A program made the translations under genes and the position numbers. From an uncultured Actinomycetota bacterium (GTDB taxonomy: Bacteria; Actinomycetota; Actinomycetes; JAFAQI01): a stretch of 64,000 bases of DNA. The notes below the pieces were generated by a model that was not told where the DNA came from, made no database searches, and saw only the letters and a list, made by a program, of their open reading frames with translations. Location: contig CAVYQE010000001.1 of assembly GCA_963770565.1 (NCBI GenBank), positions 576,001 through 640,000 of the forward strand. The letters are read 5' to 3'. Positions 205-59,280 of this stretch are shown in pieces; within the stretch, counting starts at the first letter, position 1, and each line of letters starts with the position of its first letter.

Positions 205-1371
205 CTATTTGTCGAGGTCGCCGATCACGAAGAACAGGCTGGTGAGGATCGGCACCAGGTCGCCGACGTGGGCGCCGGCAAGCAGCTCGGGCAGCACCTG
301 GACGTTGTTGAACGATGCGCTGCGCAGCTTCAGTCGCCACGGCGTCCGTTCACCGCGCGAGACCAGGTAGTAGCCGTTGATCCCCAACGGGTTCTCGGTC
401 CAGGCGTAGGTGGCGCCCTCGGGGGCCTTGACGACCTTCGGCAGCCGCAGGTTGATCGGACCGGGCGGCAGTTGCTCGAGGACCGCCGTGCAGTGCTCGG
501 CGATGTCCAGGCTGATCGCGACCTGTTCGAGCAGGCACTCGAGCCGGGCCAGCACGTCCCCCTCCACCCTGACCGGGATCCGGAGCACGCCGGGCGGTAG
601 GTCGGCGTACGCCAGGTAGGGGTCGTCGCGCCGCAGGTCGAGATCGAGCCCGCTGGCTCGCGCGATCGGGCCTGAGACGCCGAATCCCTCCGCGACGGAT
701 CGATCGAGCCGGCCGAGGCCCCGGGCGCGCGCCCGCACCGTCTCATCGCCGCGCACCACGGGCTCGAGGTCGCGCTGAACCCCGGCACGTACCTCGGCGA
801 CCGCCGATCCGACCCGTTCCAGCCAACCCGCAGGCAGATCCTGCTTCAGGCCGCCGACCTGGTTGAACATGTAGTGCATCCGGCCGCCGCAGAACTCCTC
901 CATCACGGTCTGGATCACCTCGCGCCCGGCGAAGGCGCTCGCGATCGGCGAGACCGCGGCTGAGTCGTACGGGTAACACCCGAGGAACATCAGGTGGCTC
1001 AGCACCCGGTTGAGCTCCGCGAGCAGCGTCCTGGTCCAGGTCGCCCGAACCGGGACCTCCATGCCGAGCATCCGCTCGACCGCGAGCACGATGCCCAGTT
1101 CGTTGCTGAACGCCGACAGCCAGTCGTGCCGGTTGGCCAGCACGAGGATCTGGCGGTAGTCGCGGGCTTCGAACAGCTTCTCGGCGCCGCGATGCATGTA
1201 GCCGACGATCGGGGTGGCCCGCGCGATGGTCTCGCCGTCGAGGACGAGGGCGAGCCGGAGGATTCCGTGCGCGGCCGGATGTTGCGGCGCGATGTTGAGT
1301 ACGACGTCGGACTCGGCGAACTCACCGGTCGAGACGGTGACCTCTCGGCTGCCGGCCCGCGCGCTGCTCAC
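205..1371 (-). CDS. nuoD: Stand-alone NADH-quinone oxidoreductase subunit D paralog (NuoD2-like)
   Basis: [39 protein letters not shown]-terminal GDLDK; no NiFe-binding CxxC motifs. Confidence 0.9.
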
Positions 1372-1398
1372 GCGGGCGATCCTTGCAAACCCGCGCGA

Positions 1399-2169
1399 TC
1401 AGTCGCGCCGCGGTGTCCATCGGAAGTGCCGGACCGCGAACACCGTGCCCACCACTCCCCAGATCAGCAGCGATCCCAGCTGGTGCGGCGACCACGCGCT
1501 GCCGGTCGTTCGCGGGTCGAAGGCCTTGAACATCGCGACGATGAACGGCCGCAGCGGAAGCCAAGCGGCGACCTTGGCCAAGCCGCCGTTGATCGGGAAG
1601 TACGTACCCGAGATGAAGACCAGCACGAAGTAGGGCAGGTTCACGATCGCCGGACCGGCGTCCATGTTCGGGATGAGCGACGACGCGGCAATGCCCAACG
1701 CGCAGAACACGAGAGCCGCGAGCGCGATGGTGACGATCAGCGGCAGGATGTGCGACGCCGGCAGCGACACGCCGTACACGAGGATCGCGAACACGATGCA
1801 CGCCAACGAAAGCAGCGTCGCGACGACAACCGCGTTGCCGATGATGCCCCCGATGAACGCCCACGATGGCAGCGGGGTGCCGCGCATCCGCTTGAGAATG
1901 CCGAACTCGCGCTGGCGCACCAAGGTCAGCGAGATGCTCAGGAAGCACGCACTCATCACACCGTAGGCAAGGACGCTCGGCGTGTAGTACTGCGCGAGCT
2001 TGACGCCCGGAAGAACGCTTTGGTCGTGCCCACCGCCGGCCAACCCGACCAGGATGAAGAAGAACACCAGCGGGAAGGCGAAGGTGAAGAACGCCGCACC
2101 CGGGTTACGCCAGTAGCTCTTCTGCTCGTACCGGATCTGCGTTGCCACGAGGGCGATGTCGCTGCTCAT
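1399..2169 (-). CDS. ABC-2 type exporter permease
   Basis: About six hydrophobic segments, REFGILKRMRGTPL motif; start overlaps the ATPase stop. Confidence 0.9.
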   Translation of the reverse strand: MSSDIALVATQIRYEQKSYWRNPGAAFFTFAFPLVFFFILVGLAGGGHDQSVLPGVKLAQYYTPSVLAYGVMSACFLSISLTLVRQREFGILKRMRGTPLPSWAFIGGIIGNAVVVATLLSLACIVFAILVYGVSLPASHILPLIVTIALAALVFCALGIAASSLIPNMDAGPAIVNLPYFVLVFISGTYFPINGGLAKVAAWLPLRPFIVAMFKAFDPRTTGSAWSPHQLGSLLIWGVVGTVFAVRHFRWTPRRD

Positions 2170-3104
2170 CGATGTGCTCCAGTGGTCTGCGGGTCGCTCG
2201 GCTCGGTCAGCAGTTCGTGACCGACGAGCGAGAGGTAGATGTCCTCGAGGCTCGGGCGGGTCGACACCAGGCCCTCGAGCGGTACGCCGTTGTCGATGGA
2301 CCATCCGGTCAGCTCGTGGAGGACCCGGATGTCGTCGTCGCTGGTCAGCGTGCAGAAGCCGTGCACGTCGAGGGTGGTGGCGACCGGCAGCAGGGCCGGG
2401 TCGACTCCGTCGGGAAGGCGGAACCTGATGTGCGCGGCGGCGGTGTCGCGGCCACCGAGTGCGTCGGGCGTGCCCTCGGCGACGACCTGGCCGCTACCGA
2501 TCACCACGATGTTGTCGGCGAGCTCTTGCGCTTCGTCCATGTAGTGCGTGGTCAGCATGATCGTCGTACCGAGGGTGCGCAGATCCCTGACCATGTCCCA
2601 CGCACCGCGGCGGGCGGAGGGATCGAAGCCGGTGGTGGGCTCATCGAGGAAGAGCAGCCGCGGGTTGCCGATGATCCCGTACGCCACGTCGAGGCGGCGC
2701 TGCTGTCCGCCGGAGAGCTTGTTGACCCGCGAGTCCGCCTTCTCGCCCAGGCCGACCAACTCGATCACCTCGTCGACCGGGCGGGGTCGCGGGTAGAAGC
2801 CGGCGGTCCGCGAGAGCGTCTCGCGCACGGTGAGATATGGGTCGACGGCGGTGCCTTGCAACACGATGCCGATCCCTTCGCGCCACGACCGATCGCCGTG
2901 CTGCGGGTCGTTGCCGAGCACCTCGACGCGTCCTGAGTCGCGCTTGAGATAGCCCTCGAGCACCTCGAGCGTGGTGGTCTTACCGGCACCGTTCGGGCCG
3001 AGCAGGGCGACACATGCGCCTTCGTCGACTGCGAAGCTCACTCCGCGTACGGCGAGGGTTGTGCCGTAGCTCTTGTGCAAATCGTCGACGACGATTGCAG
3101 TCAT
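2166..3104 (-). CDS. ABC exporter ATP-binding protein
   Basis: Walker A GPNGAGKT, LSGGQ signature, LFLDEPT, TTH. Confidence 0.95.
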   Translation of the reverse strand: MTAIVVDDLHKSYGTTLAVRGVSFAVDEGACVALLGPNGAGKTTTLEVLEGYLKRDSGRVEVLGNDPQHGDRSWREGIGIVLQGTAVDPYLTVRETLSRTAGFYPRPRPVDEVIELVGLGEKADSRVNKLSGGQQRRLDVAYGIIGNPRLLFLDEPTTGFDPSARRGAWDMVRDLRTLGTTIMLTTHYMDEAQELADNIVVIGSGQVVAEGTPDALGGRDTAAAHIRFRLPDGVDPALLPVATTLDVHGFCTLTSDDDIRVLHELTGWSIDNGVPLEGLVSTRPSLEDIYLSLVGHELLTEPSDPQTTGAHR

Positions 3105-3179
3105 CTCATCGGCCTTTCGTCGACTTCGGGTCCGGTTGCGTTCCCGACGTTACGTGCCCACGGAGAGCCCGGTCGTCAC

Positions 3180-3219
3180 ATCACGGGTGGATCACGGGTG
3201 GAGAGTGGTCTCAACCCGT
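3180..3219. promoter_or_regulatory. Candidate response-regulator operator between the divergent ABC exporter and two-component genes
   Basis: Tandem ATCACGGGTGG x2 (3180-3201) overlapping the inverted repeat ACGGGTGGAGA-N4-TCTCAACCCGT (3194-3219). Confidence 0.55.
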
Positions 3220-3302
3220 AGACCGATTCGCTGGCGCCGTCCGGCGTCTACCTTCGTGGTGTGACCGACCAGTGTCGAAGCGCCGCCCCCACCGTGCGTG
3301 GG

Positions 3303-4466
3303 ATGGGCGACTTCCTCCCGCCGTGGATGCGGGTCGGTTTACGGCAGGCCGTCACGCTGATCACCTTGGCGCAGACCCTGGCTGCCTTCGGCCGGCTCTC
3401 GACCCAGCAGCGGGTGCTCGCGATCGGGCTGGAAGTGGTGCTCGCCGCGTGCTGGGGAATGATCGCGCACCGGCGCCGCGGCGACTGGCTGAACATCCTC
3501 GCGCTGATCGCTCTGGTCGGGCTCGGCGGTTGGTTGCATGTCATCACCGGCAACGGACAGGTCTTCGTCGTCAGCTACGCCGTGCTGTTCGTTGCGCCGG
3601 TCTGGTATCCGATGCCGCGCGCGTTGCTGCCGGCCGGCTGCGGTGTGGTGGCGGTGACGCTGTCCACGATGTTCGTCGGCACTCGCGACATCGCTGGAGG
3701 GATCGGCAACGGCGTGGGTGCGGCGTTCTTTGGCCTGGCCGCATTGTTCTTCGGGCAGGTGCGCGACTCGGCCGAGCGCAATGCGCAGCTCGTCGACGAG
3801 CTCAGGCAGAGCCGTGACGCACAGGAGCGCAGCGCGGTGGTGGCGGAGCGCGCGCGCCTGGCGCGCGAACTGCACGATGTGCTCGCGCACACGTTGTCGA
3901 GCCTCTCGTTGCATCTCGAATCGACCCGCGCGCTTGCTGCATCGCGCGACGTGGATCCGGAGGTGCGCAGCCGGATCGAGCGCGCGGTCGCACTTGCGCG
4001 GAGCGGTCTCGAGGAGGCCCGCGATGCGGTGGGCACGTTGCGCGATGACGCGCTTCCCGGGCCGGAACGGATCCCGCTGCTGGTCGGCGAATTCGAGCGG
4101 GCCACATCGGTCGCTTCCAGCTTCGAACAGGTCGGAGAGCCGGCCGCGCTTGCCCCGGACGCGAGCGTTGCGTTGTTCCGCGGCGCGCAGGAGGCGCTGA
4201 CGAACGTCGGCAAGCATGCAGCGGCAACCCGGGTCGACGTCCGGCTCGAGTGGGGTGAGTCGCTGGTCACCCTGCGGGTGATCGACGAAGGCGGCAGCGA
4301 TGCCGGGGTGGCGCTGCCCGGCGGCGGCAACGGGCTACGCGGCATGCGGGAGCGGGCGGAGCTCGCCGGCGGGCAGATGGATGCCGGCCCGACCTCCCGC
4401 GGCTTCGCGGTCGAGCTCCGGCTGCCGGTCGTGCGAGCCGCCTCGGTGCACGAGGTGCCGGCGTGA
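3303..4466 (+). CDS. Membrane sensor histidine kinase (HisKA_3 / DesK-like)
   Basis: TM helices, ERARLARELHDVLAH H-box, QEALTNVGKHA N-box, GNGLRGMRER; start could be 3261. Confidence 0.93.
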   Translation: MGDFLPPWMRVGLRQAVTLITLAQTLAAFGRLSTQQRVLAIGLEVVLAACWGMIAHRRRGDWLNILALIALVGLGGWLHVITGNGQVFVVSYAVLFVAPVWYPMPRALLPAGCGVVAVTLSTMFVGTRDIAGGIGNGVGAAFFGLAALFFGQVRDSAERNAQLVDELRQSRDAQERSAVVAERARLARELHDVLAHTLSSLSLHLESTRALAASRDVDPEVRSRIERAVALARSGLEEARDAVGTLRDDALPGPERIPLLVGEFERATSVASSFEQVGEPAALAPDASVALFRGAQEALTNVGKHAAATRVDVRLEWGESLVTLRVIDEGGSDAGVALPGGGNGLRGMRERAELAGGQMDAGPTSRGFAVELRLPVVRAASVHEVPA

Positions 4467-5137
4467 GCGAGTACGTCGATGGGGTGATCCGGGTCGTGAT
4501 CGCCGACGACCAGACGCTGGTCCGCGAAGGGCTCGCGCTGATGCTCGGGCTGGTCGACGGCATCGAAGTGGTGGGCATCGGTGTGGACGGCGAGCAGGCG
4601 GTCTCGCTGGTCGCGGCGAGCTCGCCCCACGTCGCGCTGCTCGATCTGCGGATGCCGCGCGTCGACGGCGTGGAGGCCACCCGCCGGATCCGCGCGGACT
4701 GTCCCGGCGTCGAGGTGGTCGTCCTCACGACGTACGCCGACGACGAGTCGGTGATGGCGGCGCTTCGCGCCGGCGCCCGCGGGTACCTCACGAAGGACGC
4801 GAGCTCGGAGGAGATCGAACGCGCCATCCGCGATGCGACGCAGGGCCGCACCCGGCTCGACCACGCGGTCCAGGAGCGCCTGGTCGAGCTGGTGACATCG
4901 GGACCGACCACAGCGCAGGCCGACGCGATTCCACCCGGCGGCTCGCTCACCGAGCGCGAGACCGAGGTGCTGCAGTTGATGGCGGAGGGCCTTAACAACC
5001 GCCAGATCGCGGCTCGGTTGTTCGTGACCGAGGCGACCGTGAAGACCCACGTGAACAACGTGTTCGGCAAGCTCGACGTGAACGACCGAGCCGCCGCCGT
5101 TGCCTGGGCCTTTCGCGCCGGCGTGGCCTCGCTGTAG
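4463..5137 (+). CDS. NarL/LuxR-family response regulator
   Basis: ADDQ, LLDLRMP receiver, LTERETEVL...ATVKTHV HTH. Confidence 0.95.
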   Translation: MSEYVDGVIRVVIADDQTLVREGLALMLGLVDGIEVVGIGVDGEQAVSLVAASSPHVALLDLRMPRVDGVEATRRIRADCPGVEVVVLTTYADDESVMAALRAGARGYLTKDASSEEIERAIRDATQGRTRLDHAVQERLVELVTSGPTTAQADAIPPGGSLTERETEVLQLMAEGLNNRQIAARLFVTEATVKTHVNNVFGKLDVNDRAAAVAWAFRAGVASL

Positions 5138-5207
5138 CCAGCGCGGGCGTGGCGGCCGATTCGCTGTCGAAGAGCGCAGCGAGGTGGCCATGATCTTGCT
5201 CGCGACC

Positions 5208-6152
5208 TCACAGCGGCGGCTCGATGCCGACGCAGTGGACGAGCCAGGTGAAGTCGCCCAGGCCGCTCGGGTCGAGCAGCTCAGCGGCTTGGCCGGCGGC
5301 CGCCAGCCCGTCCAGGTAGCCGGCCGGGTCGCCGTCGTACCTCGGCTGCCGGCCGAGGACTCCGAGCGACTGCAGGGCGGCTCGCTGGCTCAGCACGACG
5401 TCACCGTCCGCGCGCAGCGACTCGAACAGCACGTGGGCGGTGAGGTCGCGCCGGCCGTCGGGGATCGCCGCCACCTGGCGGCCGTCGCGGTAGCCGGCCA
5501 GCGTGCCGCCGGTGTCCCGCGACGGGTTGGCCGCGTAGTCGATGCCGACCGCCGCGCCACGGGTCAGCCTGGACGTCAGCGCGTGCCACAGGTCGTCCCG
5601 CGGCCAGCCGATCTCGGCGCGATCGCCGAGCTCGGGGGTCGGCCACCACGCCCCCAGCCATTGTGCGTCCCGCCCGGCCACCAGCTCACCGGCCTGCTCC
5701 TGCCCCGCCGGTGAGACCGTCACCAAACGGACGCCATCCGGGTCGCGGACCGCGACATCGACCGGTACGACGTCGAGGAGCTCGACGGCAACGATCAACC
5801 CGACGACTGCGTCGGGCGGTTCGGGCTGCCACTCGACGCGTTCGGACAGGTCAGGCGGTCGCGGGGCGGGATCGACGCCGACCAGCGACCAGCTCGGCGG
5901 GGCCAGCTCGGCGAGTCCGGTCAGCAACTCGCCGCCACCCGCGCCGACGTCAACCACGCTGAACGCCGCGGTGGAGCCGAGCGCGTCCGCCACCCGGACG
6001 GCGAGCCGGTGGATGGCGGCGGCCCACGGCGCAGCCTGGCCGGCGGTCCGGAAGTGCCGGCCCGGCGCGCCGGCGGTCAGGTAGAAGCCGCCCTCGCCGT
6101 AGAGGGCCTCCGACATCGCAGTGCGCCAGGTCCGCGGGCGGGGGTCGGCCAC
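5208..6152 (-). CDS. SAM-dependent methyltransferase, MidA/NDUFAF7-like
   Basis: MSEALYGEGGFY...HFRT, VVDVGAGGGEL SAM motif, ELLDVVP, IDY, DLTAHV, GLGDF; start chosen at the GTG preceded by a TACCGT -10 box (ORF is open to 6203). Confidence 0.82.
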   Translation of the reverse strand: MADPRPRTWRTAMSEALYGEGGFYLTAGAPGRHFRTAGQAAPWAAAIHRLAVRVADALGSTAAFSVVDVGAGGGELLTGLAELAPPSWSLVGVDPAPRPPDLSERVEWQPEPPDAVVGLIVAVELLDVVPVDVAVRDPDGVRLVTVSPAGQEQAGELVAGRDAQWLGAWWPTPELGDRAEIGWPRDDLWHALTSRLTRGAAVGIDYAANPSRDTGGTLAGYRDGRQVAAIPDGRRDLTAHVLFESLRADGDVVLSQRAALQSLGVLGRQPRYDGDPAGYLDGLAAAGQAAELLDPSGLGDFTWLVHCVGIEPPL

Positions 6153-6220
6153 GATCGAGACGGTACGACGTACCCTCGTGCCGTCCGGTACCCCGCCTGT
6201 CACGAGGACTGGAACGACGA

Positions 6221-7123
6221 ATGAGCGTGCTACCTCCGGCCGAGCGGCCGGCCCGGCTTGCGGTCGGCGTGATCGGTGCCGGCCGGGTTGGCGCCGTGCT
6301 CGGGGCCGCGCTGGTCAGGGCCGGCCACCGGGTGGCCGCGGTTGCGGCCGTCTCCGAGCCGAGTCGGGCCCGCGCGGCGCTGCTGTTGCCAGGCGCGCCG
6401 ATCAAGCCGGTCGACGAGGTGGCGGCAGCGGCCGAGCTACTGGTGCTGGCCGTGCCCGACGATGCCCTCGCCGGTCTGGTCACCGGGCTGGCGAACGCGG
6501 CCGCGGTCGGCGCCGGGACGCTCGTCGCCCACACCAGCGGCGCGCACGGGATCGAGGTGCTCGAGCCGCTGACGGTGCGAGGCGCCTTGCCGCTGGCGCT
6601 GCATCCGGTCATGACCTTCACCGGTACCGAGGTCGACCTCCAGCGCCTCGATGGCGCCTGCTTCGGGGTCACCACGACCGAGCGGCTGCGTCCGGTCGCC
6701 GAGGCGCTTGTGATCGAGATGGGCTCGGAGCCGGTGTGGATCGCCGAGGAGCTGCGGACCACGTATCACGCCGGGCTCGCCTTCGGCGCGAACAACCTCG
6801 TGACCCTGGTCGCCGAAGCGGCGGACGTGTTGTCCCGAGCGGGCGTCGAACACCCCCAACGGATGCTTGGACCGCTGCTCGGGGCGGCGCTCGACAATGC
6901 GCTTCGCCGCGGCGATCGGGCGTTGACCGGACCGGTTGCGCGCGGCGACGCCGGGACGGTTGCGGCCCATCTCGCCGCGATCAGGTCGATGGCGCCCGAG
7001 GCCATCGCGGCGTACGTCGAGATGTCGCGGCTGACCGCGCTACGCGCGCTGGCGGCCGGAACCTTGAGCGCCGAGGACGCGAGCGCGTTGCTGGACGTGC
7101 TCGCCGCGCCGGAGCCGACGTGA
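6221..7123 (+). CDS. Rossmann-like + DUF2520 oxidoreductase (PanG-like ketopantoate reductase)
   Basis: GAGRVG, HTSGAHG, LHPVMTF, YHAGL, LTGPVARGD; directly upstream of panC. Confidence 0.85.
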   Translation: MSVLPPAERPARLAVGVIGAGRVGAVLGAALVRAGHRVAAVAAVSEPSRARAALLLPGAPIKPVDEVAAAAELLVLAVPDDALAGLVTGLANAAAVGAGTLVAHTSGAHGIEVLEPLTVRGALPLALHPVMTFTGTEVDLQRLDGACFGVTTTERLRPVAEALVIEMGSEPVWIAEELRTTYHAGLAFGANNLVTLVAEAADVLSRAGVEHPQRMLGPLLGAALDNALRRGDRALTGPVARGDAGTVAAHLAAIRSMAPEAIAAYVEMSRLTALRALAAGTLSAEDASALLDVLAAPEPT

Positions 7124-7977
7124 GTGCGCTGCTCGTGGTCACGACCCGCGCCGAGCTTGCGGCGGCGCGCGAGGCGATGGCCGGGCGGGTCGCGGTCGTG
7201 ATGACGATGGGCGCGATCCATGCGGGTCATCGCCGTTTGATGCAGGTCGCTCGTGCGCAGGCCGACAGTGTGCTCGTCACGATCTTCGTGAACCCGCTCC
7301 AGTTCGGCGCAGGCGAGGACTTCCAGCGCTATCCCCGCGACCTCGAAGCCGACTTGGCCTCCTGCGCGGAGGAGGGGGTCGACGTCGCCTTCACCCCCGA
7401 CGAGACGGTGATGTATCCGCCCGGCGCGGGGCTGGTCCATCGTGAGGCGGGTCCGCTCGGCGCACAGTTCGAAGGGACGATCCGGCCGGGGCACTTCGAC
7501 GGTGTCCTTACCGCCGTGGCGGAGTTGCTGACGCTGACGAAACCGGACCTTGCCGTCTTCGGCGAGAAGGACGCACAACAGCTCGAGCTGATCAGGCGGC
7601 TCGTCGCCGAGCTCGACGAGCCGGTCGAGATCCAGTCGGTCGAGACGGTTCGTGAGCCCGACGGCCTGGCCTTGTCGAGCCGCAACCAATACCTCAACGG
7701 CGACGAACGTGAGGCCGCCCGGTCCCTGTCGCAGGCGCTTCGTGCCGGCGCCGCCAATGCCGGTGGCGGAGTGGCGGCTGCGCTTTCCGCGGCGCGGGCC
7801 GTGCTCGACGCGCAGCCGTTGATCGATGTCGACTACCTCGCGGCGGTCGACGACCGGACCTGGCACGAACCCGATGCCACCACCGAACGGCTGCGACTTC
7901 TCGTGGCGGGCCGGATCGGGAGCACCCGCTTGATCGACAATGTGGTGGTCGACCGATCCGCCGCCGGAGGAGCCTGA
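7120..7977 (+). CDS. panC: Pantoate--beta-alanine ligase
   Basis: TMGAIHAGH, FVNPLQF, RPGHFDGV, FGEKDAQQ, GLALSSRN, TRLIDN. Confidence 0.96.
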   Translation: MSALLVVTTRAELAAAREAMAGRVAVVMTMGAIHAGHRRLMQVARAQADSVLVTIFVNPLQFGAGEDFQRYPRDLEADLASCAEEGVDVAFTPDETVMYPPGAGLVHREAGPLGAQFEGTIRPGHFDGVLTAVAELLTLTKPDLAVFGEKDAQQLELIRRLVAELDEPVEIQSVETVREPDGLALSSRNQYLNGDEREAARSLSQALRAGAANAGGGVAAALSAARAVLDAQPLIDVDYLAAVDDRTWHEPDATTERLRLLVAGRIGSTRLIDNVVVDRSAAGGA

Positions 7978-7980
7978 GCC

Positions 7981-8739
7981 ATGCTTCTGACCATCGATGT
8001 CGGCAACACCAACACCGTCATCGGGCACTTCGACGGCGATCGCCTCGTCGAGTCGTGGCGGATCAAGACCGACACTCGCGCCACCGCCGACGAGCTGGCC
8101 CTGTTGTTGCGGGGCTTGCTCGTCGACAGCGAGAAGCCCGACGGGATCGCGGCCTGCTCGACCGTGCCGGCCGTGTTGCACGAGCTTCGTGGCGTCTTCT
8201 CGCGTTACTACTCGACGGTGCCGGCGGTGATCGTCGAGCCCGGGGTGAAGACCGGCGTACCGCTGTTGTACGACAACCCGCGCGAGGTCGGCGCCGATCG
8301 GATCGTGAACACCCTGGCTGCCTACCACCTGTTCGGCGGGCCGGCGATCGTCGTGGACTTCGGGACCTCGACCAACTTCGACGTAGTCAGCGACAAGGGC
8401 GAGTTTCTCGGGGGCGCGATTGCTCCCGGGATCGAGCTGTCGATCGACGCCCTCGCGGCCCGCGGCGCCCGGCTCTTCAAGGTCGAGCTGGCCCGGCCGC
8501 GGTCGGTCATCGGCAAGAGCACGGTCGAAGCGCTGCAGTCCGGGCTGATCTACGGTTTCGCCGGTCAGATCGATGGCCTGGTTCGCCGGATCAGCGAGGA
8601 GCTCGCCGCCGACCCGGTCGTGGTGGCGACCGGTGGTCTTGCCGCGCTGGTGATCGACGAGTGCGAGACCGTGACCGAGTACGAGCCCGACCTCACCCTG
8701 ATCGGCCTGCGCCTGGTCTTCGACCGGAACCAGACCTGA
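7981..8739 (+). CDS. coaX: Type III pantothenate kinase
   Basis: IDVGNTN, EVGADR, VDFGTST, GGAIAPG. Confidence 0.96.
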
Positions 8740-15770: not shown

Positions 15771-16979
15771 GTGAGCGCGCAGCCGGAGAGCCCAGCTCCG
15801 GTCTCCATCGTGGTCGTTGACGACTCCGCGACCCAACGACGCTTCATTCGTACCGCGTTGTCCGCGGACCCGACCCTCGAGGTGGTCGGCGAGGCCCGGA
15901 CCGGCCGTGACGCGGTTGCCCTCGTCGAGCGGCTGCGCCCGTCCGTCGTCCTGATGGACCTGCACCTGCCGGTGATGGACGGCATCCAGGCGATCGAGCG
16001 GATCATGGCCACCCGGCCGACCCCGATCGTGGTCTACTCCTCGTTCGTCGACGGGATGGACCGCGACAACGCCGCCTCGGCGTACTCGGCCGGTGCCGTC
16101 GATGTGATCGCCAAGCCCGGCCCGCACGACAGCGGCCGGCTCGAGGCGTACGCCGAAGTGCTCTGCCAGCGGCTGAAGGTGGCCGGCCGGGTCCGGGTGA
16201 TCACCCACCCGCGCGGTCGGCTCGGCATGTCGGGTACGGCGCTGACCACGCTGAGGCTCGACGCGCCACCGGGGAGTACGGGCGAGGGGCGCGGCCGGGC
16301 CCGTGAGGCCGGCCAGCCGCGAGGATCGCACTCGCGCCGGGCGTCCGCGCCACCACGACGGATCGACCCGGCCGAACTGCGCGAGGTCAAGGTGCTGGCG
16401 ATCGGTGCGTCGACCGGCGGCCCGCAGGCGCTCGCGATGCTGCTGTCCGGACTCTCGCCCGACACGACGGCCGCGATCGTCGTGGTCCAGCACATGGCGG
16501 ACGGCTTCATGGAGGGGTTGGCGTCCTGGCTGAACGACGTCTGCCCGCTCCCGGTCGAACTCGGCGCGAACGGCAAGCGGATGGTGCCCGGCACCGTGAC
16601 GATCGCTCCGAGCGGCCTGAACCTCGTCGTCCACGACCGGTTGCGACTGACCACGCACGACCCTGAGCCGGGGCAGTACCACGTCCCTGGCATCGACGCG
16701 ACGTTCTCCTCGGTAGCGCAGGCCTATGGCGCGGCCGCGGTCGGGGTGTTGCTGACCGGGATGGGGCGTGACGGCGCGCGCGGGCTCAAGCGGATGCGGG
16801 ACCACGGCGCGTTGACCCTCGTGCAGGACGAGTCGACCAGCGCGGTGTACGGAATGCCGGCCGCGGCGATGTCCGCCGGCGCGGTCGACGTCCAGCTGCC
16901 GCTACCTGAGATCTGCTCGGCGGTCTATCGGTTGTTGGAGACCGGGTCACTGGCCACGGACGAGGATGGCTCGGGATGA
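15771..16979 (+). CDS. cheB: Chemotaxis protein-glutamate methylesterase with receiver domain
   Basis: Receiver (VVDD, LMDLHLP, KP) plus GASTGG, VQHM, LTGMGRDGA catalytic motifs. Confidence 0.94.
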   Translation: MSAQPESPAPVSIVVVDDSATQRRFIRTALSADPTLEVVGEARTGRDAVALVERLRPSVVLMDLHLPVMDGIQAIERIMATRPTPIVVYSSFVDGMDRDNAASAYSAGAVDVIAKPGPHDSGRLEAYAEVLCQRLKVAGRVRVITHPRGRLGMSGTALTTLRLDAPPGSTGEGRGRAREAGQPRGSHSRRASAPPRRIDPAELREVKVLAIGASTGGPQALAMLLSGLSPDTTAAIVVVQHMADGFMEGLASWLNDVCPLPVELGANGKRMVPGTVTIAPSGLNLVVHDRLRLTTHDPEPGQYHVPGIDATFSSVAQAYGAAAVGVLLTGMGRDGARGLKRMRDHGALTLVQDESTSAVYGMPAAAMSAGAVDVQLPLPEICSAVYRLLETGSLATDEDGSG

Positions 16980-18433
16980 CCCGCGTCGTACTGAGCGACT
17001 ACGAGTTCGCCTCGATCGCGAGCCTGCTGCACGACGCGGCCGGCCTCACCTTCGACGAGTCGCGGCGCGACTCGCTCACCTTCAGCGTCGCCGAGCGGAT
17101 GAACGTCACCGGCGCCCCCGACGTGGCGGCGTACCTCGCGATCCTCATCGACCCCGACGGGGCGTCGGAGCGGCAGGCGCTCATCGACGAGGTGACGATC
17201 CCGGAGACCCACTTCTTCCGCAATCCGCCGCAGGTTCGCGCGCTGCGGACGTACGTGCTGCCGGAACTGCTGCGGCAGGCGGCCGCGGGCCGGCGGTTGC
17301 GGATCTGGAGTGCCGGGTGCTCGACCGGCGAGGAGGCCTACACGGTCGCGATCCTGATCCGTGAGCTGCTCCCGCCGAACGCCGACTGGGACGTCAAGGT
17401 GATCGCGACGGACGTGTCGAAGCGGGCGCTCGCGACCGCCGGCGCAGCGCACTACTCGGAGCGCTCGTTCGTCATGACCGACCCGCTCGATCTCGCCCGC
17501 TGGTTCGTCCTCGACACCGAGAGCGGCTGCTGGGTCGTCCGCGACGAGGTCCGGGAGCTGGTCGAGTTCCGCCACCACAACCTGGTGACCGACCACCCGC
17601 CGTTCGAGCTCGATCAGGCCGACCTGATCCTCTGCCGGAACGTGACGATCTACTTCGACCGCGAGACCACCCGGCGGCTGATGAAGCGGCTGCACAACCG
17701 GCTCCGCGACGGCGGCTACCTGTTCCTCGGGCACGCCGAGACGCTGTGGCAGATCAGCGACGACTTCTCGCTGGTGTCGCTGGGCGATGCCTTTGTCTAC
17801 CGCCGGCTCGAGCAGCCCACCGAGGGCGAGAAGCGGCGCTGGGTGCTGCGTGACCGCCGGACCGAGGACGAGCTCCGTCCGACCCGGGCCGACCGTCGCC
17901 GCGGCGACGCCGACCGGCGCGGGCGTGCCTCGCGCGAGGTTCCGGCGCCGCGTCGCTCCGAGGCCGAACTGCTGCTGTCCGACGTCGAACCGGTCCCGCC
18001 CTCGCCGACCCGTGACCCGCTCGACGCGGTCCGGGTAGCGATTGCCCAAGGCCGGTACGCCGAGGCCGCCGACCTGGCCGGCGAAGTCGTCGCGGCCACG
18101 CCGCTGTGGGCGCAGGCGCACTATCTACAGGGCGTTGCGCTCACCAACCTCGGCCGGGATGCCGATGCTCTGGTCGTGCTGCGAAAGGCCGTCTACCTCG
18201 ACCCCGACCATGGCTTCGCCCATTTCCTGCTCGGCGGTGCGCTCGATCGCCTCGACGAGCCGGTCGCGGCGTCGCGGTCGTACCGGGCCGCCGCGAACAC
18301 GCTCGGCCGGCGCCCGATGGACGGTGTGGCCGCCGAGCTCGGTGGCCGGAGCGTGGTCGAGCTCGCCGACCTCTGCGACCAGCTGGCCCGCCGCGCCGAT
18401 GCGGCATCCAAGGCCCAGGAGCGCTCGCCGTGA
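16976..18433 (+). CDS. cheR: Chemotaxis methyltransferase CheR with C-terminal TPR repeats
   Basis: TIPETHFFR, WSAGCSTGEEAY, DLILCRNVTIYF, GHAE; TPR-like AHYLQGVAL...RKAVYLDP. Confidence 0.93.
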   Translation: MTRVVLSDYEFASIASLLHDAAGLTFDESRRDSLTFSVAERMNVTGAPDVAAYLAILIDPDGASERQALIDEVTIPETHFFRNPPQVRALRTYVLPELLRQAAAGRRLRIWSAGCSTGEEAYTVAILIRELLPPNADWDVKVIATDVSKRALATAGAAHYSERSFVMTDPLDLARWFVLDTESGCWVVRDEVRELVEFRHHNLVTDHPPFELDQADLILCRNVTIYFDRETTRRLMKRLHNRLRDGGYLFLGHAETLWQISDDFSLVSLGDAFVYRRLEQPTEGEKRRWVLRDRRTEDELRPTRADRRRGDADRRGRASREVPAPRRSEAELLLSDVEPVPPSPTRDPLDAVRVAIAQGRYAEAADLAGEVVAATPLWAQAHYLQGVALTNLGRDADALVVLRKAVYLDPDHGFAHFLLGGALDRLDEPVAASRSYRAAANTLGRRPMDGVAAELGGRSVVELADLCDQLARRADAASKAQERSP

Positions 18434-56621: not shown

Positions 56622-57227
56622 ATGGGCATCGAGGAAAAGATTCCCGACGGGATCCTGCTGACCACCGTCGCCAAGGTCCTGAACATCGCCCGGAAGAACT
56701 CCGTCTGGCCGGCGCAGTTCGGCCTGGCCTGCTGCGCGATCGAGATGATGGCGGTCGGCGGTCCTCGGTTCGACATCGCGCGGTTCGGGATGGAGCGCTT
56801 CAGCGCCTCGCCCCGCCAGGCCGACCTGATGATCGTGGCCGGCCGGGTCTCGCAGAAGATGGCGCCGGTGCTTCGACAGATCTACGACCAGATGCCCGAG
56901 CCCAAGTGGGTGCTGGCGATGGGGGTCTGCGCGAGCAGCGGCGGGATGTTCAACAACTACGCGATCGTGCAGGGCGTCGACCACATCGTGCCGGTCGACA
57001 TGTACCTGCCCGGTTGCCCACCGCGCCCGGAGATGCTGCTCGACGCGATCCTCAAGCTGCACGACAAGATCCGGACCGGCCCGATCAGCGGCAAGCCCGA
57101 GCACACCACCATCGGCAACTCGCCGTACGTCAAGCCGATCGAGCGTGACACCCGGGCGTCGAAGGGGCTGGCGGTCGACGCCGAGATCCCCGCGTTCACC
57201 TCGCCGCTCCCCGGAGCCGGCTCGTGA
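56622..57227 (+). CDS. nuoB: NADH-quinone oxidoreductase subunit B
   Basis: [24 protein letters not shown]. Confidence 0.97.
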
Positions 57228-57919
57228 CCGAGCCGACGGACCCGGCCGGCGAGCAGGACCTCGAGCCGACCGGCACCGGTGGGCGCCGCCACGACATCTT
57301 CGGCGCGTCGGGCTTCGGCGACACCTCCGGCTTCGGGGGTCTGGTGGCCCGCCCGCCGCAGCTGGTCTCGACCCCACGCCCGTACGGCGAGTGGTTCGAC
57401 GAGGCCACCGATGCGCTCCAGGCGGCCTATCCCGCCTTCGGCGACGCGATCGAGCGGGTCGTGGTGCACCGCGGCGAGCTCACGCTGCACATCAAGCGGG
57501 ACGCGCTGGTCGAGATCGCCCGGACCCTGCGCGACGATCCCGGGCTGCGGTTCGAGATGTGCGCGAGCATCTCGGGGGTCGACTACCTCGCCGACCCGAC
57601 CGGCCGGCGGCTCCACGCGGTCTACCACCTGCTGTCAATGACCTATCGGCGCCGGCTGCGGCTCGAGGTCTCGGTCACCGCCGAGGACCCGCACGTCCCG
57701 AGCCTGACCGAGGTCTACCCCACCGCGAACTGGCACGAGCGCGAGACCTGGGACTTCTTCGGCATCGTCTTCGACGGCCACCCGGGGCTGACCAGGATCG
57801 AGATGCCAGACGACTGGCCGGGGCACCCGCAACGCAAGGACTACCCGCTCGGCGGCATCCCGGTCGAATACAAGGGCGCCACCGTGCCACCTCCGGACGA
57901 ACGGAGGTCCTACGCGTGA
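57224..57919 (+). CDS. nuoC: NADH-quinone oxidoreductase subunit C
   Basis: [17 protein letters not shown]. Confidence 0.96.
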
Positions 57920-59280
57920 CCAACACGACCGACGAGAGCTCCGCGACGACCTACAACGACAACGACCCGTACGCCGGCGCCGAGCCCGAGGGCGAGGGCC
58001 GGGTGTTCACGGTCGGCGGTGGCGACTGGGAGGACGTGGTCGCCTCGATCGACCCGACCGAGAGCGAACGGATCGTCGTCAACATGGGCCCGCAGCACCC
58101 GTCGACGCACGGCGTCCTCCGGTTGGTGCTCGAGCTCGAAGGCGAGACGGTGATGGAGGCCCGGCCGGTCATCGGCTATCTGCACACCGGCATCGAGAAG
58201 AACATGGAGTTCCGGAACTGGACCCAGGCGGTCACGTTCATCACCCGCTGCGACTACCTCGCGCCGATGTTCAACGAGGCGACCTACTGCCTCGGGGTCG
58301 AGCGCCTGCTGGACATCGAGGACCAGATCCCGCAGCGGGTCCTGGTCCTGCGGGTGCTCGTCCTGGAGCTGCAGCGGATCTCCTCACACCTGGTCTGGCT
58401 CGGCACCGGCGGCCTCGAGCTCGGCGCGCTCACCGCGATGCTGCTCGCGTTCCGCGAGCGCGAGGAGATCAGCCGGATCTTCGAGATGATCACCGGCCTT
58501 CGGATGAACCACGCCTACATCCGGCCAGGCGGCGTGGCCCAGGACATCCCGCCGGGAGCGGTCGACGCGATCCGGCAGTTCGTTCCGGTCATGCGCAGCC
58601 GGATCGACGAGTACGAAGACCTGCTCTCGGCGAACCCGATCTGGATCGCCCGGACGCAAGGGGTCGGCTACCTCGACACCGAGGCCTGCATGCAGCTCGG
58701 CGTTACCGGGCCGCTGCTGCGCGCGTCCGGACTCGCCTGGGACCTGCGCCGCGAGATGCCGTGCCTCGGTTACGACACGTACGAGTTCGACGTCGTGACC
58801 GAAACCGCCGGCGACTGCTACGCGCGATACAAGGTGCGGCTCGACGAGATGCGGCAGTCGCTGCGGATCATCGAGCAGGCGCTCGACCGGTTGCGGCCGG
58901 GCCCGACGATGGTGGCGGACAAGAAGATCGCCTGGCCGGCGCAGCTCGCGCTCGGCGCCGACGGCCTCGGCAACTCCCTCGACCACATCCGCACCATCAT
59001 GGGCACCTCGATGGAGGCGCTGATCCATCACTTCAAGCTGGTGACCGAGGGGTTCCGGGTGCCGGCCGGGCAGGCCTACGTACCGGTCGAGTCGCCGCGC
59101 GGCGAGCTCGGTGCCCACGTCGTGTCCGACGGCGGCACCCGGCCGTACCGCGTCCACCTGCGCGACCCGAGCTTCGTCAATCTGCAGGCGGTGCCGGCGA
59201 TCACCGAGGGCGGGATGGTGTCCGACGTGGTCGCCAGCGTGGCCAGCATCGATCCGGTCATGGGCGGAGTTGACCGCTGA
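57916..59280 (+). CDS. nuoD: NADH-quinone oxidoreductase subunit D (operon copy)
   Basis: [38 protein letters not shown]. Confidence 0.97.

Follow-up and report, generated by a model that had tools for sequence, protein, structure and literature searches.

A MidA-family methyltransferase linked to a second NuoD paralogue, and a putative Q-module without a membrane arm, in an actinomycete

We find that an actinomycete genome encodes, at one locus, a methyltransferase of the MidA/NDUFAF7 family and a spare paralogue of complex I subunit D (NuoD2), and as judged from sequence, the two most likely form an enzyme–substrate pair of the NDUFAF7–NDUFS2 kind. In the mechanism that we propose, MidA would use SAM to methylate Arg61 of NuoD2, a residue expected to lie in the second shell of the partner B subunit's N2-type Fe–S cluster; the modification would help NuoD2 to dock onto that subunit. 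The partner is predicted to be NuoB2, not the NuoB of the nuo operon, and B2, C2, D2, and I2 together would make up a second Q-module. The module belongs, in most actinomycetes, to a complex I-like nuo2 enzyme with its own membrane arm (A2, H2, J2–N2) and no NADH module (E, F, G), whereas here it may exist as a soluble or peripherally attached Fe–S protein without a canonical quinone site, because the membrane genes are absent from this genome (94.9% complete) and the quinone-pocket loops have relaxed. We regard this explanation as a whole, pair and soluble or peripheral second Q-module together, as moderately probable. The more specific proposal that the Q-module (NuoB2, C2, D2, I2), once freed from its membrane arm, is a free-standing three-cluster Fe–S protein whose assembly still needs arginine methylation by MidA is offered as a tentative and rather doubtful one.

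Results and Discussion

NuoD2 and the operon NuoD

The window is the whole stretch of DNA that was analysed (64,000 nucleotides), and its relevant features are collected in Table 1. The host is a soil actinomycete. Among the sequencing runs listed for it, at least 20 are of DNA and none is of RNA.

Table 1. Coordinates of the features discussed, numbered from the first letter of the window
Feature	Position	Strand	Basis or correspondence
NuoD2, stand-alone paralogue of complex I subunit D, 388 aa	205..1371	−	PF00346
Trp84 codon of NuoD2, TGG	1120..1122	−	Aligns with quinone-site Tyr87 of Thermus Nqo4
Arg61 codon of NuoD2, CGC	1189..1191	−	NDUFS2 Arg85 / Yarrowia R121 / Thermus Nqo4 Thr64 (PMC3750175, PMC8042128)
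ABC-2 type permease, insertion between MidA and NuoD2	1399..2169	−	PF01061
ABC transporter ATPase, insertion	2166..3104	−	PF00005, synteny
HisKA_3 histidine kinase, insertion, opposite strand	3261..4466	+	PF07730
LuxR-type response regulator, insertion	4463..5137	+	PF00072, PF00196
MidA/NDUFAF7-family SAM-dependent methyltransferase, 331 aa	5208..6203	−	PF02636 and predicted fold
DUF2520 Rossmann protein, panC (GTG at 7120), coaX	6221..8739	+	Pfam, synteny in relatives
Operon NuoB (Arg75 codon 56844-56846)	56622..57227	+	Arg75 = Thermus Nqo6 Arg83
Operon NuoD, 454 aa, HTG	57916..59280	+	Pfam/NCBIfam; quinone-site Tyr kept

NuoD2 matches PF00346 in two stretches (3.8e-55) and is not found inside the nuo operon between nuoC and nuoE; on one side it borders an ABC permease and on the other the window ends, while in relatives, it comes after MidA. 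It scores below all of the NCBIfam NuoD equivalog cut-offs (343 vs. 522 for NF008974, 315.5 vs. 360 for NF004739, and 320 vs. 459 for TIGR01962), and the operon NuoD passes NF004739 and TIGR01962 with scores of 570.9 and 562.6, respectively. A protein homologue search with NuoD2 returned only close relatives, annotated as NuoD.

The HRGAEK motif of NuoD2 carries Arg61, which is invariant in the alignment of 19/19 orthologues. Trp84, equally invariant (19/19), was placed at the position of the Thermus tyrosine by ungapped alignment to chain 2fug_4 (offset +3, codon checked). Of the quinone-site residues, NuoD2 therefore keeps His35 (Thermus H38) but has Trp for Tyr (Y87), and alignments to PDB structures reveal that a segment of 24–37 aa of NuoD is missing. 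The PDB matches of NuoD2 are to complex I (1e-66) and, more weakly, to MbhL (1e-37) and HycE (1e-36). In the large subunit of group 4 [NiFe]-hydrogenases, N- and C-terminal cysteine pairs bind the Ni–Fe center; NuoD2 has no N-terminal CxxC, and its C-terminus (FFVIGDLDK) has no Cys, so we reject this assignment.

A preliminary description of this DNA had set the Arg codon of NuoD2 against a Thr codon in the operon copy (ACC, 58186-58188), and reading of both codons bears this out. Its count of two NuoD genes is correct for the window, but a profile search of the whole genome detects four PF00346 genes, along with a single PF02636 gene. The two further NuoD-like paralogues (contigs C2 and C11) both have the HRG arginine; we considered them as MidA targets and rejected them, since paralogues of this type are present in only 3/41 relatives (G000, G017, G036) and thus do not track with MidA.

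The methyltransferase belongs to the MidA family

On the basis of HMM and predicted fold, we assign the methyltransferase gene to the MidA/NDUFAF7 family, as had been suggested earlier. Its product scores 64 bits with PF02636 (Methyltransf_28, COG1565), for which the cut-off is 23.3 (E 1.9e-17), with the best stretch covering only profile positions 75–235 of 249, and no NCBIfam model matches it. In the control genomes, PF02636 has a match in Caulobacter and none in E. coli. When the AF2 model (pLDDT 87.9, pTM 0.86) was compared to the PDB with Foldseek, ranks 1–6 were all MidA/COG1565 proteins (4g67, 4f3n, 1zkd, 5ztz, 5zu0; TMq 0.70–0.76), and other methyltransferases reached a TMq of 0.39 at most. 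Two of these best matches, 5ztz and 5zu0, are Dictyostelium MidA. Among 17 orthologues, there is no variation at D85, G89, E141/L143/D144, D222/Y223, and T255/A256; we take D85/G89 to be SAM-binding motif I, with NE.LD, DY, and TAHV as further family motifs, and the conserved motif stretches also align to 4f3n.

Prediction of a MidA–NuoD2 complex supported the pair weakly, with a median ipSAE of 0.38 (0.38, 0.34, 0.48), compared to 0.00 for the best of three controls, with contact agreement between runs of at least 0% and a partner pLDDT of at least 81; the pass mark for such predictions is reached by 116/157 solved complexes and 2/215 mismatched pairs, and scores of 0.60 or lower comprise only 18 of the 157 solved complexes together with both passing mismatches.

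A second Q-module that has lost its membrane arm

The preliminary description viewed NuoD2 as an orphan forming a two-gene module with the methyltransferase outside any complex I-like set, and this view has to be abandoned. A nuoB2–nuoC2–nuoI2 cluster is located ~75 kb from NuoD2, outside the window (G000:C1:651984-653457), and relatives have a full nuo2 set (A2, B2, C2, H2–N2) without D, E, F, or G, frequently beside a 2-oxoacid:ferredoxin oxidoreductase. NuoB2 is present in 31/32 NuoD2-positive genomes. In the genome studied here, the locus consists of AtuA, B2, C2, I2, CorA, and DUF520, and the three nuo2 genes are intact, with matches to PF01058, PF00329, and Fer4 and with all Fe–S cysteine motifs kept. 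We did not find the nuo2 membrane arm (A2, H2, J2–N2) in this genome: of its three PF00146 matches, none is H2, and a NuoH2 query reaches only the operon NuoH (44% identity). In this genome and four sister genera, all nuo2 membrane genes have been deleted in place.

The loss of the membrane genes is also what would be seen if B2–C2–I2, NuoD2, and MidA were functionless, decaying leftovers of a lost nuo2 complex in this lineage. Several observations are in keeping with decay. The reduced lineages have longer NuoD2 branches in a quick IQ-TREE tree with five rows of unlike composition and several long branches, and the quinone-pocket loops have drifted, with pairwise identities of 0.23–0.32 without the membrane arm versus 0.83–0.86 with the full set. 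Furthermore, G163, a complete genome of the same class, has a divergent NuoD2-like gene and has lost MidA, while G035 keeps B2–C2–I2 without D2 or MidA. We nevertheless consider decay unlikely, as the five genes are intact, and their flanks conserved, in genomes from five genera, every Fe–S ligand motif is retained, and NuoD2 residues 56–85 are 100% identical among six reduced-type orthologues. The three deletions took exactly the membrane genes and korAB, sparing the three hydrophilic genes. The dN/dS ratios (0.20–0.34 for D2, B2, C2, and I2, and 0.38–0.49 for MidA) are similar to that of panC (0.30–0.34), and B2, C2, and I2 have been kept by purifying selection.

A retained Q-module, as we propose, would resemble an intermediate that arises while mitochondrial complex I is being assembled, where NDUFS2, S3, S7, and S8 form the Q-module. 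The same four subunits (D, C, B, and I) are represented here, but unlike in mitochondria, they seem to be the end product, as the genome encodes no membrane arm dedicated to them. The reduced form thereby raises the question of whether a membrane arm is needed for a Q-module to work, which bears on the evolution of complex I from soluble modules. If our reading is true, the free-standing module would descend from complex I as a soluble protein and would have taken on a new, non-quinone function.

The closest described counterpart is the streptomycete nuo2 system (nuoA2, B2, H2–N2; PMC3765725, PMC8388888). NuoD2 is orthologous to the separate nuoD2 of streptomycetes, with Streptomyces loci (64–69% identity) among the 80 related NuoD2 loci, and NuoB2 is likewise orthologous; in contrast to the streptomycete set, only B2–C2–I2 is found here, without A2, H2, or J2–N2. 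The accessible portions of PMC3765725 and PMC8388888 mention neither a methyltransferase nor a function for nuoD2.

Co-occurrence and synteny of MidA and NuoD2

Among 41 related genomes, MidA and NuoD2 are both present in the same 32 and both absent from the same 9, where a NuoD2 orthologue was defined by at least 50% identity over the full length and MidA by a PF02636 match. In a phylum-wide sample (301 genomes, each at least 90% complete), both genes are present in 95 genomes, MidA alone in 6, a NuoD2-like gene alone in 52, and neither in 148; because the genomes are related, such counts exceed the number of independent events. In 26/32 genomes, MidA is upstream of NuoD2 on the same contig and strand. 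Five of the 16 gaps measured are −13, −4, −4, 9, and 13 bp, and we expect the genes to be often translationally coupled.

The linkage extends to 80 named actinomycete loci. The two genes are no more than 10 kb apart in 74 of them, where MidA is upstream of NuoD2 and on its strand (49 loci), downstream in convergent orientation (22), or upstream in divergent orientation (3). In the remaining six, MidA was not found, five of these being contig ends or short contigs. Adjacency has thus outlasted an inversion and is seen in three orientations and across several classes of the phylum. In one family (f24), both genes are present in 21/21 genomes; in the four compared, they are either 1.1 Mb apart or split between contigs. 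These data agree with the co-occurrence and synteny that had been anticipated for Actinomycetes, and the synteny comparison likewise recovers the neighbourhood of panC noted before, with DUF2520–panC–coaX as the conserved divergent neighbour of the MidA–NuoD2 operon. We found no description of this linkage in actinomycetes in the literature searched; a 2018 Cell Reports work on proteobacterial MidA origin was outside its scope.

The constancy of panC also lends itself to a different reading, in which MidA acts on some other protein, or on DNA, and lies near NuoD2 simply because gene order has been inherited. DUF2520–panC adjoins MidA in every locus compared, and some of the synteny could therefore stem from conservation of this part of the chromosome. 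In the phylum sample, 52/147 genomes with a NuoD2-like gene do without MidA, which makes MidA dispensable for this protein type, and six have MidA without a high-scoring NuoD2-like match. In addition, Wolbachia MidA expressed in E. coli methylated DNA, as described in a 2025 paper according to which the function of prokaryotic MidA had been inferred in silico only (PMC12455994). Against this, the presence and absence of the two genes agree in 41/41 relatives, their adjacency recurs in three orientations and several classes, and their stop and start codons overlap in some loci. A NuoD2-like gene accompanies MidA in 95/101 MidA-positive genomes, with four of the other six still giving matches at 1e-91 to 1e-96, and the only substrate demonstrated for the family, according to PMC3829151, is a NuoD homologue. 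Taken with these points, action on another substrate seems to us quite improbable.

The pairing of MidA with NuoD2 cannot be read from the arginine itself, which had been proposed as the mark of a MidA substrate. The HRG arginine is kept in 20/20 sampled NuoD2-like proteins of MidA-less genomes; this excludes HRG as a predictor of MidA and renders the arginine alone uninformative on methylation.

Two forms of the arginine switch in one genome

An inter-subunit arginine switch between the D and B subunits has been described (PMC8042128). In all 21 operon pairs that we examined, NuoB has AGR and NuoD has HTG, with Arg75 of the operon NuoB equated to Nqo6 R83 by ungapped alignment to chain 2fug_6 (offset +8, codon checked). 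NuoB2 has Thr at this position, in an [S/A]GT motif shared by all 26 NuoB2 loci. By sequence, the NuoD2 (Arg) and NuoB2 (Thr) pair would correspond to the mitochondrial form of the switch and the operon pair (Thr and Arg) to the Thermus form. Unlike in Thermus thermophilus, whose Nqo4/Nqo6 pair (PMC8042128) resembles the operon pair, the opposite pair is thus also present, and both solutions would coexist in one cell.

As its NuoD has Thr, the housekeeping complex I cannot be a substrate of arginine methylation; the earlier statement that the operon copy lacks the target arginine holds in 21/21 operons, in all of which the quinone-site Tyr is kept. According to PMC3750175, Nqo4 of Paracoccus carries the dimethyl-Arg but E. 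coli NuoCD does not.

It is very unlikely that NuoD2, matured by MidA, swaps into the canonical Nuo1 complex as an alternative D subunit under some condition: the operon's membrane arm is the sole one available to it in a genome without nuoH2 or nuoA2, and the His35 loop and overall fold are kept, but Arg61 and Arg75 of the operon NuoB would fill the same space (PMC8042128), dedicated B2, C2, and I2 exist and co-occur with NuoD2, Tyr87 has become Trp with the 24–37 aa segment gone, and drift of the quinone-site loops in lineages without the nuo2 membrane arm would be unexpected in a protein fitting NuoH1.

The proposed MidA–NuoD2 pair is most similar to NDUFAF7–NDUFS2 Arg85 and to Paracoccus denitrificans Nqo4, with a methyltransferase of the same family by HMM and fold, an HRG arginine by cluster N2, and Thr in the partner B subunit. 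It differs in that the presumed substrate is a paralogue outside the nuo operon with Trp for Tyr and a missing segment, that the housekeeping complex I has Thr, and that the two genes are physically linked, no such linkage being known for the mitochondrial and alphaproteobacterial pairs. How and why the arginine by cluster N2 is dimethylated is a standing question, and an actinomycete operon with a methylase and one dedicated substrate would provide a simple genetic system for the role of the mark. The cell's own housekeeping complex I, since it uses the Thr/Arg arrangement, would not confound such a test. If the pair is as proposed, this would be the first case in bacteria of an NDUFAF7 step tied to its substrate at the level of the genes.

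Lineage-specific genes inserted between MidA and NuoD2

The methyltransferase was originally placed on the same strand as NuoD2 and upstream of it. This stands, but the distance here is 3.8 kb, with four genes in between, two on the same strand and two on the opposite one. The stop codon of the ABC-2 permease is 27 bp ahead of the NuoD2 start. In most relatives, this permease is absent between MidA and NuoD2, and among 20 loci compared, a histidine kinase is found between them only in this genome (G000), G001, and G021.

Genomic context and identity of MidA

The source genome (G000; 70% G+C, 4.43 Mb in 11 contigs, completeness 94.9%) carries two NuoD genes in the window, one stand-alone (NuoD2) and one in the nuo operon. 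A protein homologue search places the closest relatives of NuoD2 in metagenome bins labeled Frankiaceae or Mycobacteriales. The two codons on which the preliminary description separated the copies are exact: CGC (Arg) at 1189-1191 and ACC (Thr) at 58186-58188. Beyond the features tabulated here, the window holds housekeeping genes (clpC, disA, radA, haem synthesis, cytochrome c biogenesis, and Rex). At 15771-18433, a CheB methylesterase gene adjoins that of a CheR methyltransferase with TPR repeats, with no chemotaxis cluster nearby within the window. A 618-aa ORF at 6121-7977 is a high-G+C artefact, the true panC start being the GTG at 7120 (4-bp overlap with the DUF2520 stop), and many long antisense ORFs within window positions 1-10 kb are of the same type.

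Features of the NuoD2-MidA region, the nuo operon, and the partner cluster (window positions unless a contig of the source genome, G000, is given)
Feature	Position	Strand	Remarks
NuoD2	205-1371	-	388 aa, PF00346 at 3.8e-55
ABC-2 permease	1399-2169	-	between NuoD2 and MidA
ABC ATPase	2166-3104	-	between NuoD2 and MidA
HisKA_3 kinase	3261-4466	+	between NuoD2 and MidA
LuxR regulator	4463-5137	+	between NuoD2 and MidA
MidA (PF02636 methyltransferase)	5208-6203	-	331 aa
DUF2520, panC, coaX			divergent from the methyltransferase gene
nuo operon	starts 56265		
Operon NuoD	57916-59280	+	
NuoB2-NuoC2-NuoI2 cluster	G000:C1:651984-653457		4 kb past nuoN, outside the window

The methyltransferase is a member of the MidA family, as had been proposed from the sequence, with an HMM score of 64 bits against the Pfam cut-off of 23.3; NCBIfam has no model for it. 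Its sequence-only PDB match is weak (4f3n, 1.4e-4). The best six PDB matches of an AlphaFold2 model based on 17 orthologues (mean pLDDT 87.9) are all COG1565/MidA proteins, among them 4g67, 4f3n, 1zkd, and the two Dictyostelium MidA structures 5ztz and 5zu0 (TMq 0.70-0.76), and those that follow are generic methyltransferases with TMq of at most 0.39. The SAM motif and three more family motifs are invariant among the orthologues.

Co-occurrence and linkage of MidA and NuoD2

Co-occurrence and synteny, which the preliminary description put forward as tests of an enzyme-substrate pair, are both borne out among 41 relatives (the source genome included). When NuoD2 orthologues are taken as full-length proteins with 50-100% identity and at least 349 bits, NuoD2 is found in 32/41 genomes and PF02636 in 32/41, and the 32 genomes are identical. 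The 9/41 relatives with neither gene have completeness values of 84, 55, 69, 91, 96, 100, 100, 86, and 93%. MidA lies upstream on the same contig and strand in 26/32 genomes, and in the other 6/32 the two genes are split between contigs. Five of the 16 measured pairs have gaps of -13, -4, -4, 9, and 13 bp, that is, from a 13-bp overlap to a 13-bp gap. Synteny among the relatives indicates an ancestral layout of coaX-panC-DUF2520 divergent from MidA-NuoD2, with the ABC genes as a later insertion between MidA and NuoD2, as is the two-component system in three genomes.

At 80 named loci (Streptomyces, Kitasatospora, Actinomadura, Nonomuraea, Kribbella, Terrabacter, Actinoplanes, Acidothermaceae, and others), MidA precedes NuoD2 on the same strand in 49 (no more than 300 bp away in 19), follows it closely in convergent orientation in 22 (no more than 300 bp away in 20), and lies upstream in divergent orientation in 3; at the remaining 6, five of which are short contigs or contig ends, no MidA was found. 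The adjacency thus outlasts an inversion, which speaks for something beyond inherited gene order.

Across the phylum, we searched 301 genomes of at least 90% completeness with an HMM built from the NuoD2 alignment, at a threshold of E <1e-99, and observed both genes in 95, a NuoD2-like gene only in 52, MidA only in 6, and neither in 148. A genome with MidA thus nearly always has a NuoD2-like gene as well, and the converse fails. Of the 20 NuoD2-like proteins sampled from MidA-less genomes, 19 group in one clade of a quick tree (support 97), which points to few losses. Some of the genomes counted are flagged as unpublished: two relatives, G032 and G040, and eleven from the phylum sample. The co-occurrence counts overstate the number of separate events because kin are not independent.

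Partner subunits and the nuo2 gene set

The claim that NuoD2 is an orphan fails, as the same genome holds a partner cluster encoding NuoB2 (161 aa), NuoC2 (191 aa), and a NuoI-like 2x[4Fe-4S] protein (NuoI2, 144 aa). All cysteine ligand motifs are present in this cluster, and it contains no gene for a D or membrane subunit. Five NuoB-type and three NuoH-type genes occur in the genome as a whole. A NuoB2 orthologue is present in 31/32 NuoD2-positive relatives, the single miss being a genome where nuoH2 starts 833 bp from a contig end, and also in 3/9 NuoD2-negative ones.

Five relatives (G031, G034, G026, G010, and G038) carry a full A2-B2-C2-H2-I2-J2-K2-L2-M2 set without D, E, F, and G, usually divergent from a 2-oxoacid:ferredoxin oxidoreductase. 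This set matches the nuo2 set described in streptomycetes, where nuoD2 likewise sits apart from the other nuo2 genes (PMC3765725, PMC8388888); the available excerpts of these two sources mention neither a function of nuoD2 nor a methylase. We found no description of the MidA-NuoD2 linkage in the literature on nuoD2, nuo2, and NDUFAF7/MidA, and a 2025 statement has prokaryotic MidA function as so far only inferred in silico (PMC12455994).

The oxidoreductase alpha subunit, which adjoins nuo2 in relatives, lies elsewhere in the source genome (C11:520021-521886; L224) and matches the G010 copy at 81% identity with one in-frame TGA. Clusters of NuoH-like, NuoD-like, and NuoB-like genes are also present outside the window, at G000:C2:148014-152760 and G000:C11:814567-819887 (L004, L005, L030, L033, L035, L036). 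Their NuoD-like proteins, 399 aa each and with the HRG arginine, form a distant outgroup in the tree, with similar paralogues in only 3/41 relatives, and the clusters resemble modules of the group 4 hydrogenase type or the Mbx type.

Subunit pairing read from the Arg/Thr switch

The best solved relatives of NuoD2 in PDB alignments are the complex I 49-kDa subunits and Thermus Nqo4 (~1e-66), with a break at residues 304-316, where those proteins are 24-37 residues longer; alignment to the shorter MbsL and MbhL is unbroken. NuoD2 falls below every NCBIfam NuoD equivalog cut-off; operon NuoD passes. NuoD2 and Nqo4 align without gaps from residue 22 onward (offset +3), such that His35 corresponds to H38, Arg61 to T64, and Trp84 to Y87, all three being invariant in 19 orthologues. 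NuoD2 hence retains the N2-adjacent arginine and is without the quinone-protonating tyrosine.

In an inter-subunit switch described in 2021, the dimethylated arginine of NDUFS2 is Thr in Thermus Nqo4 and Arg83 of Nqo6 fills that space, with Thr122 at the Arg83 position in Yarrowia NDUFS7 (PMC8042128). Operon NuoB aligns ungapped with Nqo6, its Arg75 corresponding to R83, whereas NuoB2 has Thr80 there, like the Paracoccus and bovine subunits. Across genomes, operon pairs have AGR in B and HTG plus Tyr in D (21/21), NuoB2 loci have [S/A]GT (26/26, in 24 genomes), and NuoD2 orthologues have HR (19/19). One cell thus has both a Thermus-type and a mitochondrial-type pair, and NuoD2 fits NuoB2 rather than operon NuoB. 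The use of the switch as a pairing test is new from this window.

Proposed methylation of NuoD2

NDUFAF7 dimethylates the corresponding NDUFS2 arginine during assembly (PMC3829151), and the mark is reported in Paracoccus Nqo4 and as absent from E. coli NuoCD (PMC3750175); the E. coli genome contains no PF02636 gene. In NDUFS2, the arginine is 3.7 A away from N2 and is described as required for the cluster and the S2-S7 contact (PMC8042128). MidA probably methylates Arg61 of NuoD2 before or during docking on NuoB2. The product would be a ferredoxin-fed enzyme without an NADH module in genomes where the nuo2 membrane genes are present (full-type), and an Fe-S module without a membrane arm in the source genome. 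Structure prediction lends weak support to a NuoD2-MidA complex: the median ipSAE is 0.38 (runs 0.38, 0.34, 0.48; best of three controls 0.00), a range (≤0.60) that holds only 18/157 solved complexes and both of the mismatched pairs that pass, the pass mark being reached by 116/157 solved complexes and 2/215 mismatched pairs. Partner pLDDT is 81 or higher, and the runs share at least 0% of contacts.

Several observations speak against this reading. No MidA is found in 52/147 NuoD2-like-positive genomes of the phylum sample, and a divergent NuoD2-like gene stands without MidA in one complete genome of the same class. In MidA-less genomes, 20/20 sampled NuoD2-like proteins retain the arginine, as in E. 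coli, where it is unmodified. Wolbachia MidA, moreover, is reported to have methylated DNA in E. coli (PMC12455994). A further point new from this window is a limit on the HRG motif, which is no predictor of MidA.

Reduced nuo2 loci

NuoH2 (at least 66% identity) occurs in 19/41 relatives and in 17/32 NuoD2-positive ones. Twelve NuoD2-positive genomes have only B2-C2-I2 at the locus (reduced-type): 10, from five genera of the source genome's family, in the order AtuA, B2, C2, I2, CorA, DUF520, and two more distant genomes with KorA, B2, C2, I2, DUF520; two of the twelve loci are incomplete (the G003 contig ends inside I2, and no AtuA was seen at the G017 locus). In three further genomes, the contig ends directly after C2. 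In a full-type member of the same family, the locus reads AtuA, KorA, A2 through L2-type genes, CorA, and DUF520, so the reduced form arose in place by deletions. These took korAB and every membrane gene and left the three hydrophilic genes, the membrane-gene absence being read from a draft genome. The retention in this lineage of a Q-module that lacks a membrane arm is likewise new from this window. Loss is partial in two same-class genomes that are small or divergent: G035 (L153; 93% complete) keeps KorA, B2, C2, I2, and DUF520, with NuoD2 and MidA not found, and G163 (L172; 100% complete) has a very long-branch NuoD2-like gene without MidA.

The surviving genes do not appear to be decaying. 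By NG86 against three relatives, which is rough at this divergence and G+C content, dN/dS is 0.20-0.28 for NuoD2, 0.20-0.30 for B2, 0.26-0.34 for C2, 0.21-0.27 for I2, and 0.38-0.49 for MidA, compared with 0.10-0.13 for operon NuoD and 0.30-0.34 for panC, and all Fe-S motifs are kept. Reduced-type NuoD2 branches are longer in the quick tree. Pairwise identity over NuoD2 residues 128-149 is 0.23-0.32 among six reduced-type sequences versus 0.83-0.86 among ten full-type ones, and the stretch around HRGAEK (residues 56-85) shows 100% identity among reduced-type orthologues. The NuoB2 loop from the tandem cysteines to SGT is rewritten or shortened in several reduced-type genomes. The relaxed parts are those facing the quinone tunnel.

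The AtuA-family gene is a conserved divergent neighbor of B2-C2-I2 in reduced-type genomes (L037:4212-5927, minus strand; L150, L194-L201). According to the title of a 2026 paper (PMC13399572), a fungal AtuA protein reportedly interacts with the 24-kDa complex I subunit, a parallel that may be coincidence. A DUF520 (YajQ-like) gene marks the distal end of the nuo2 or B2-C2-I2 locus in both reduced types and two full-type genomes (L037:8478-8972, minus strand; L149, L152, L153, L144, L148).
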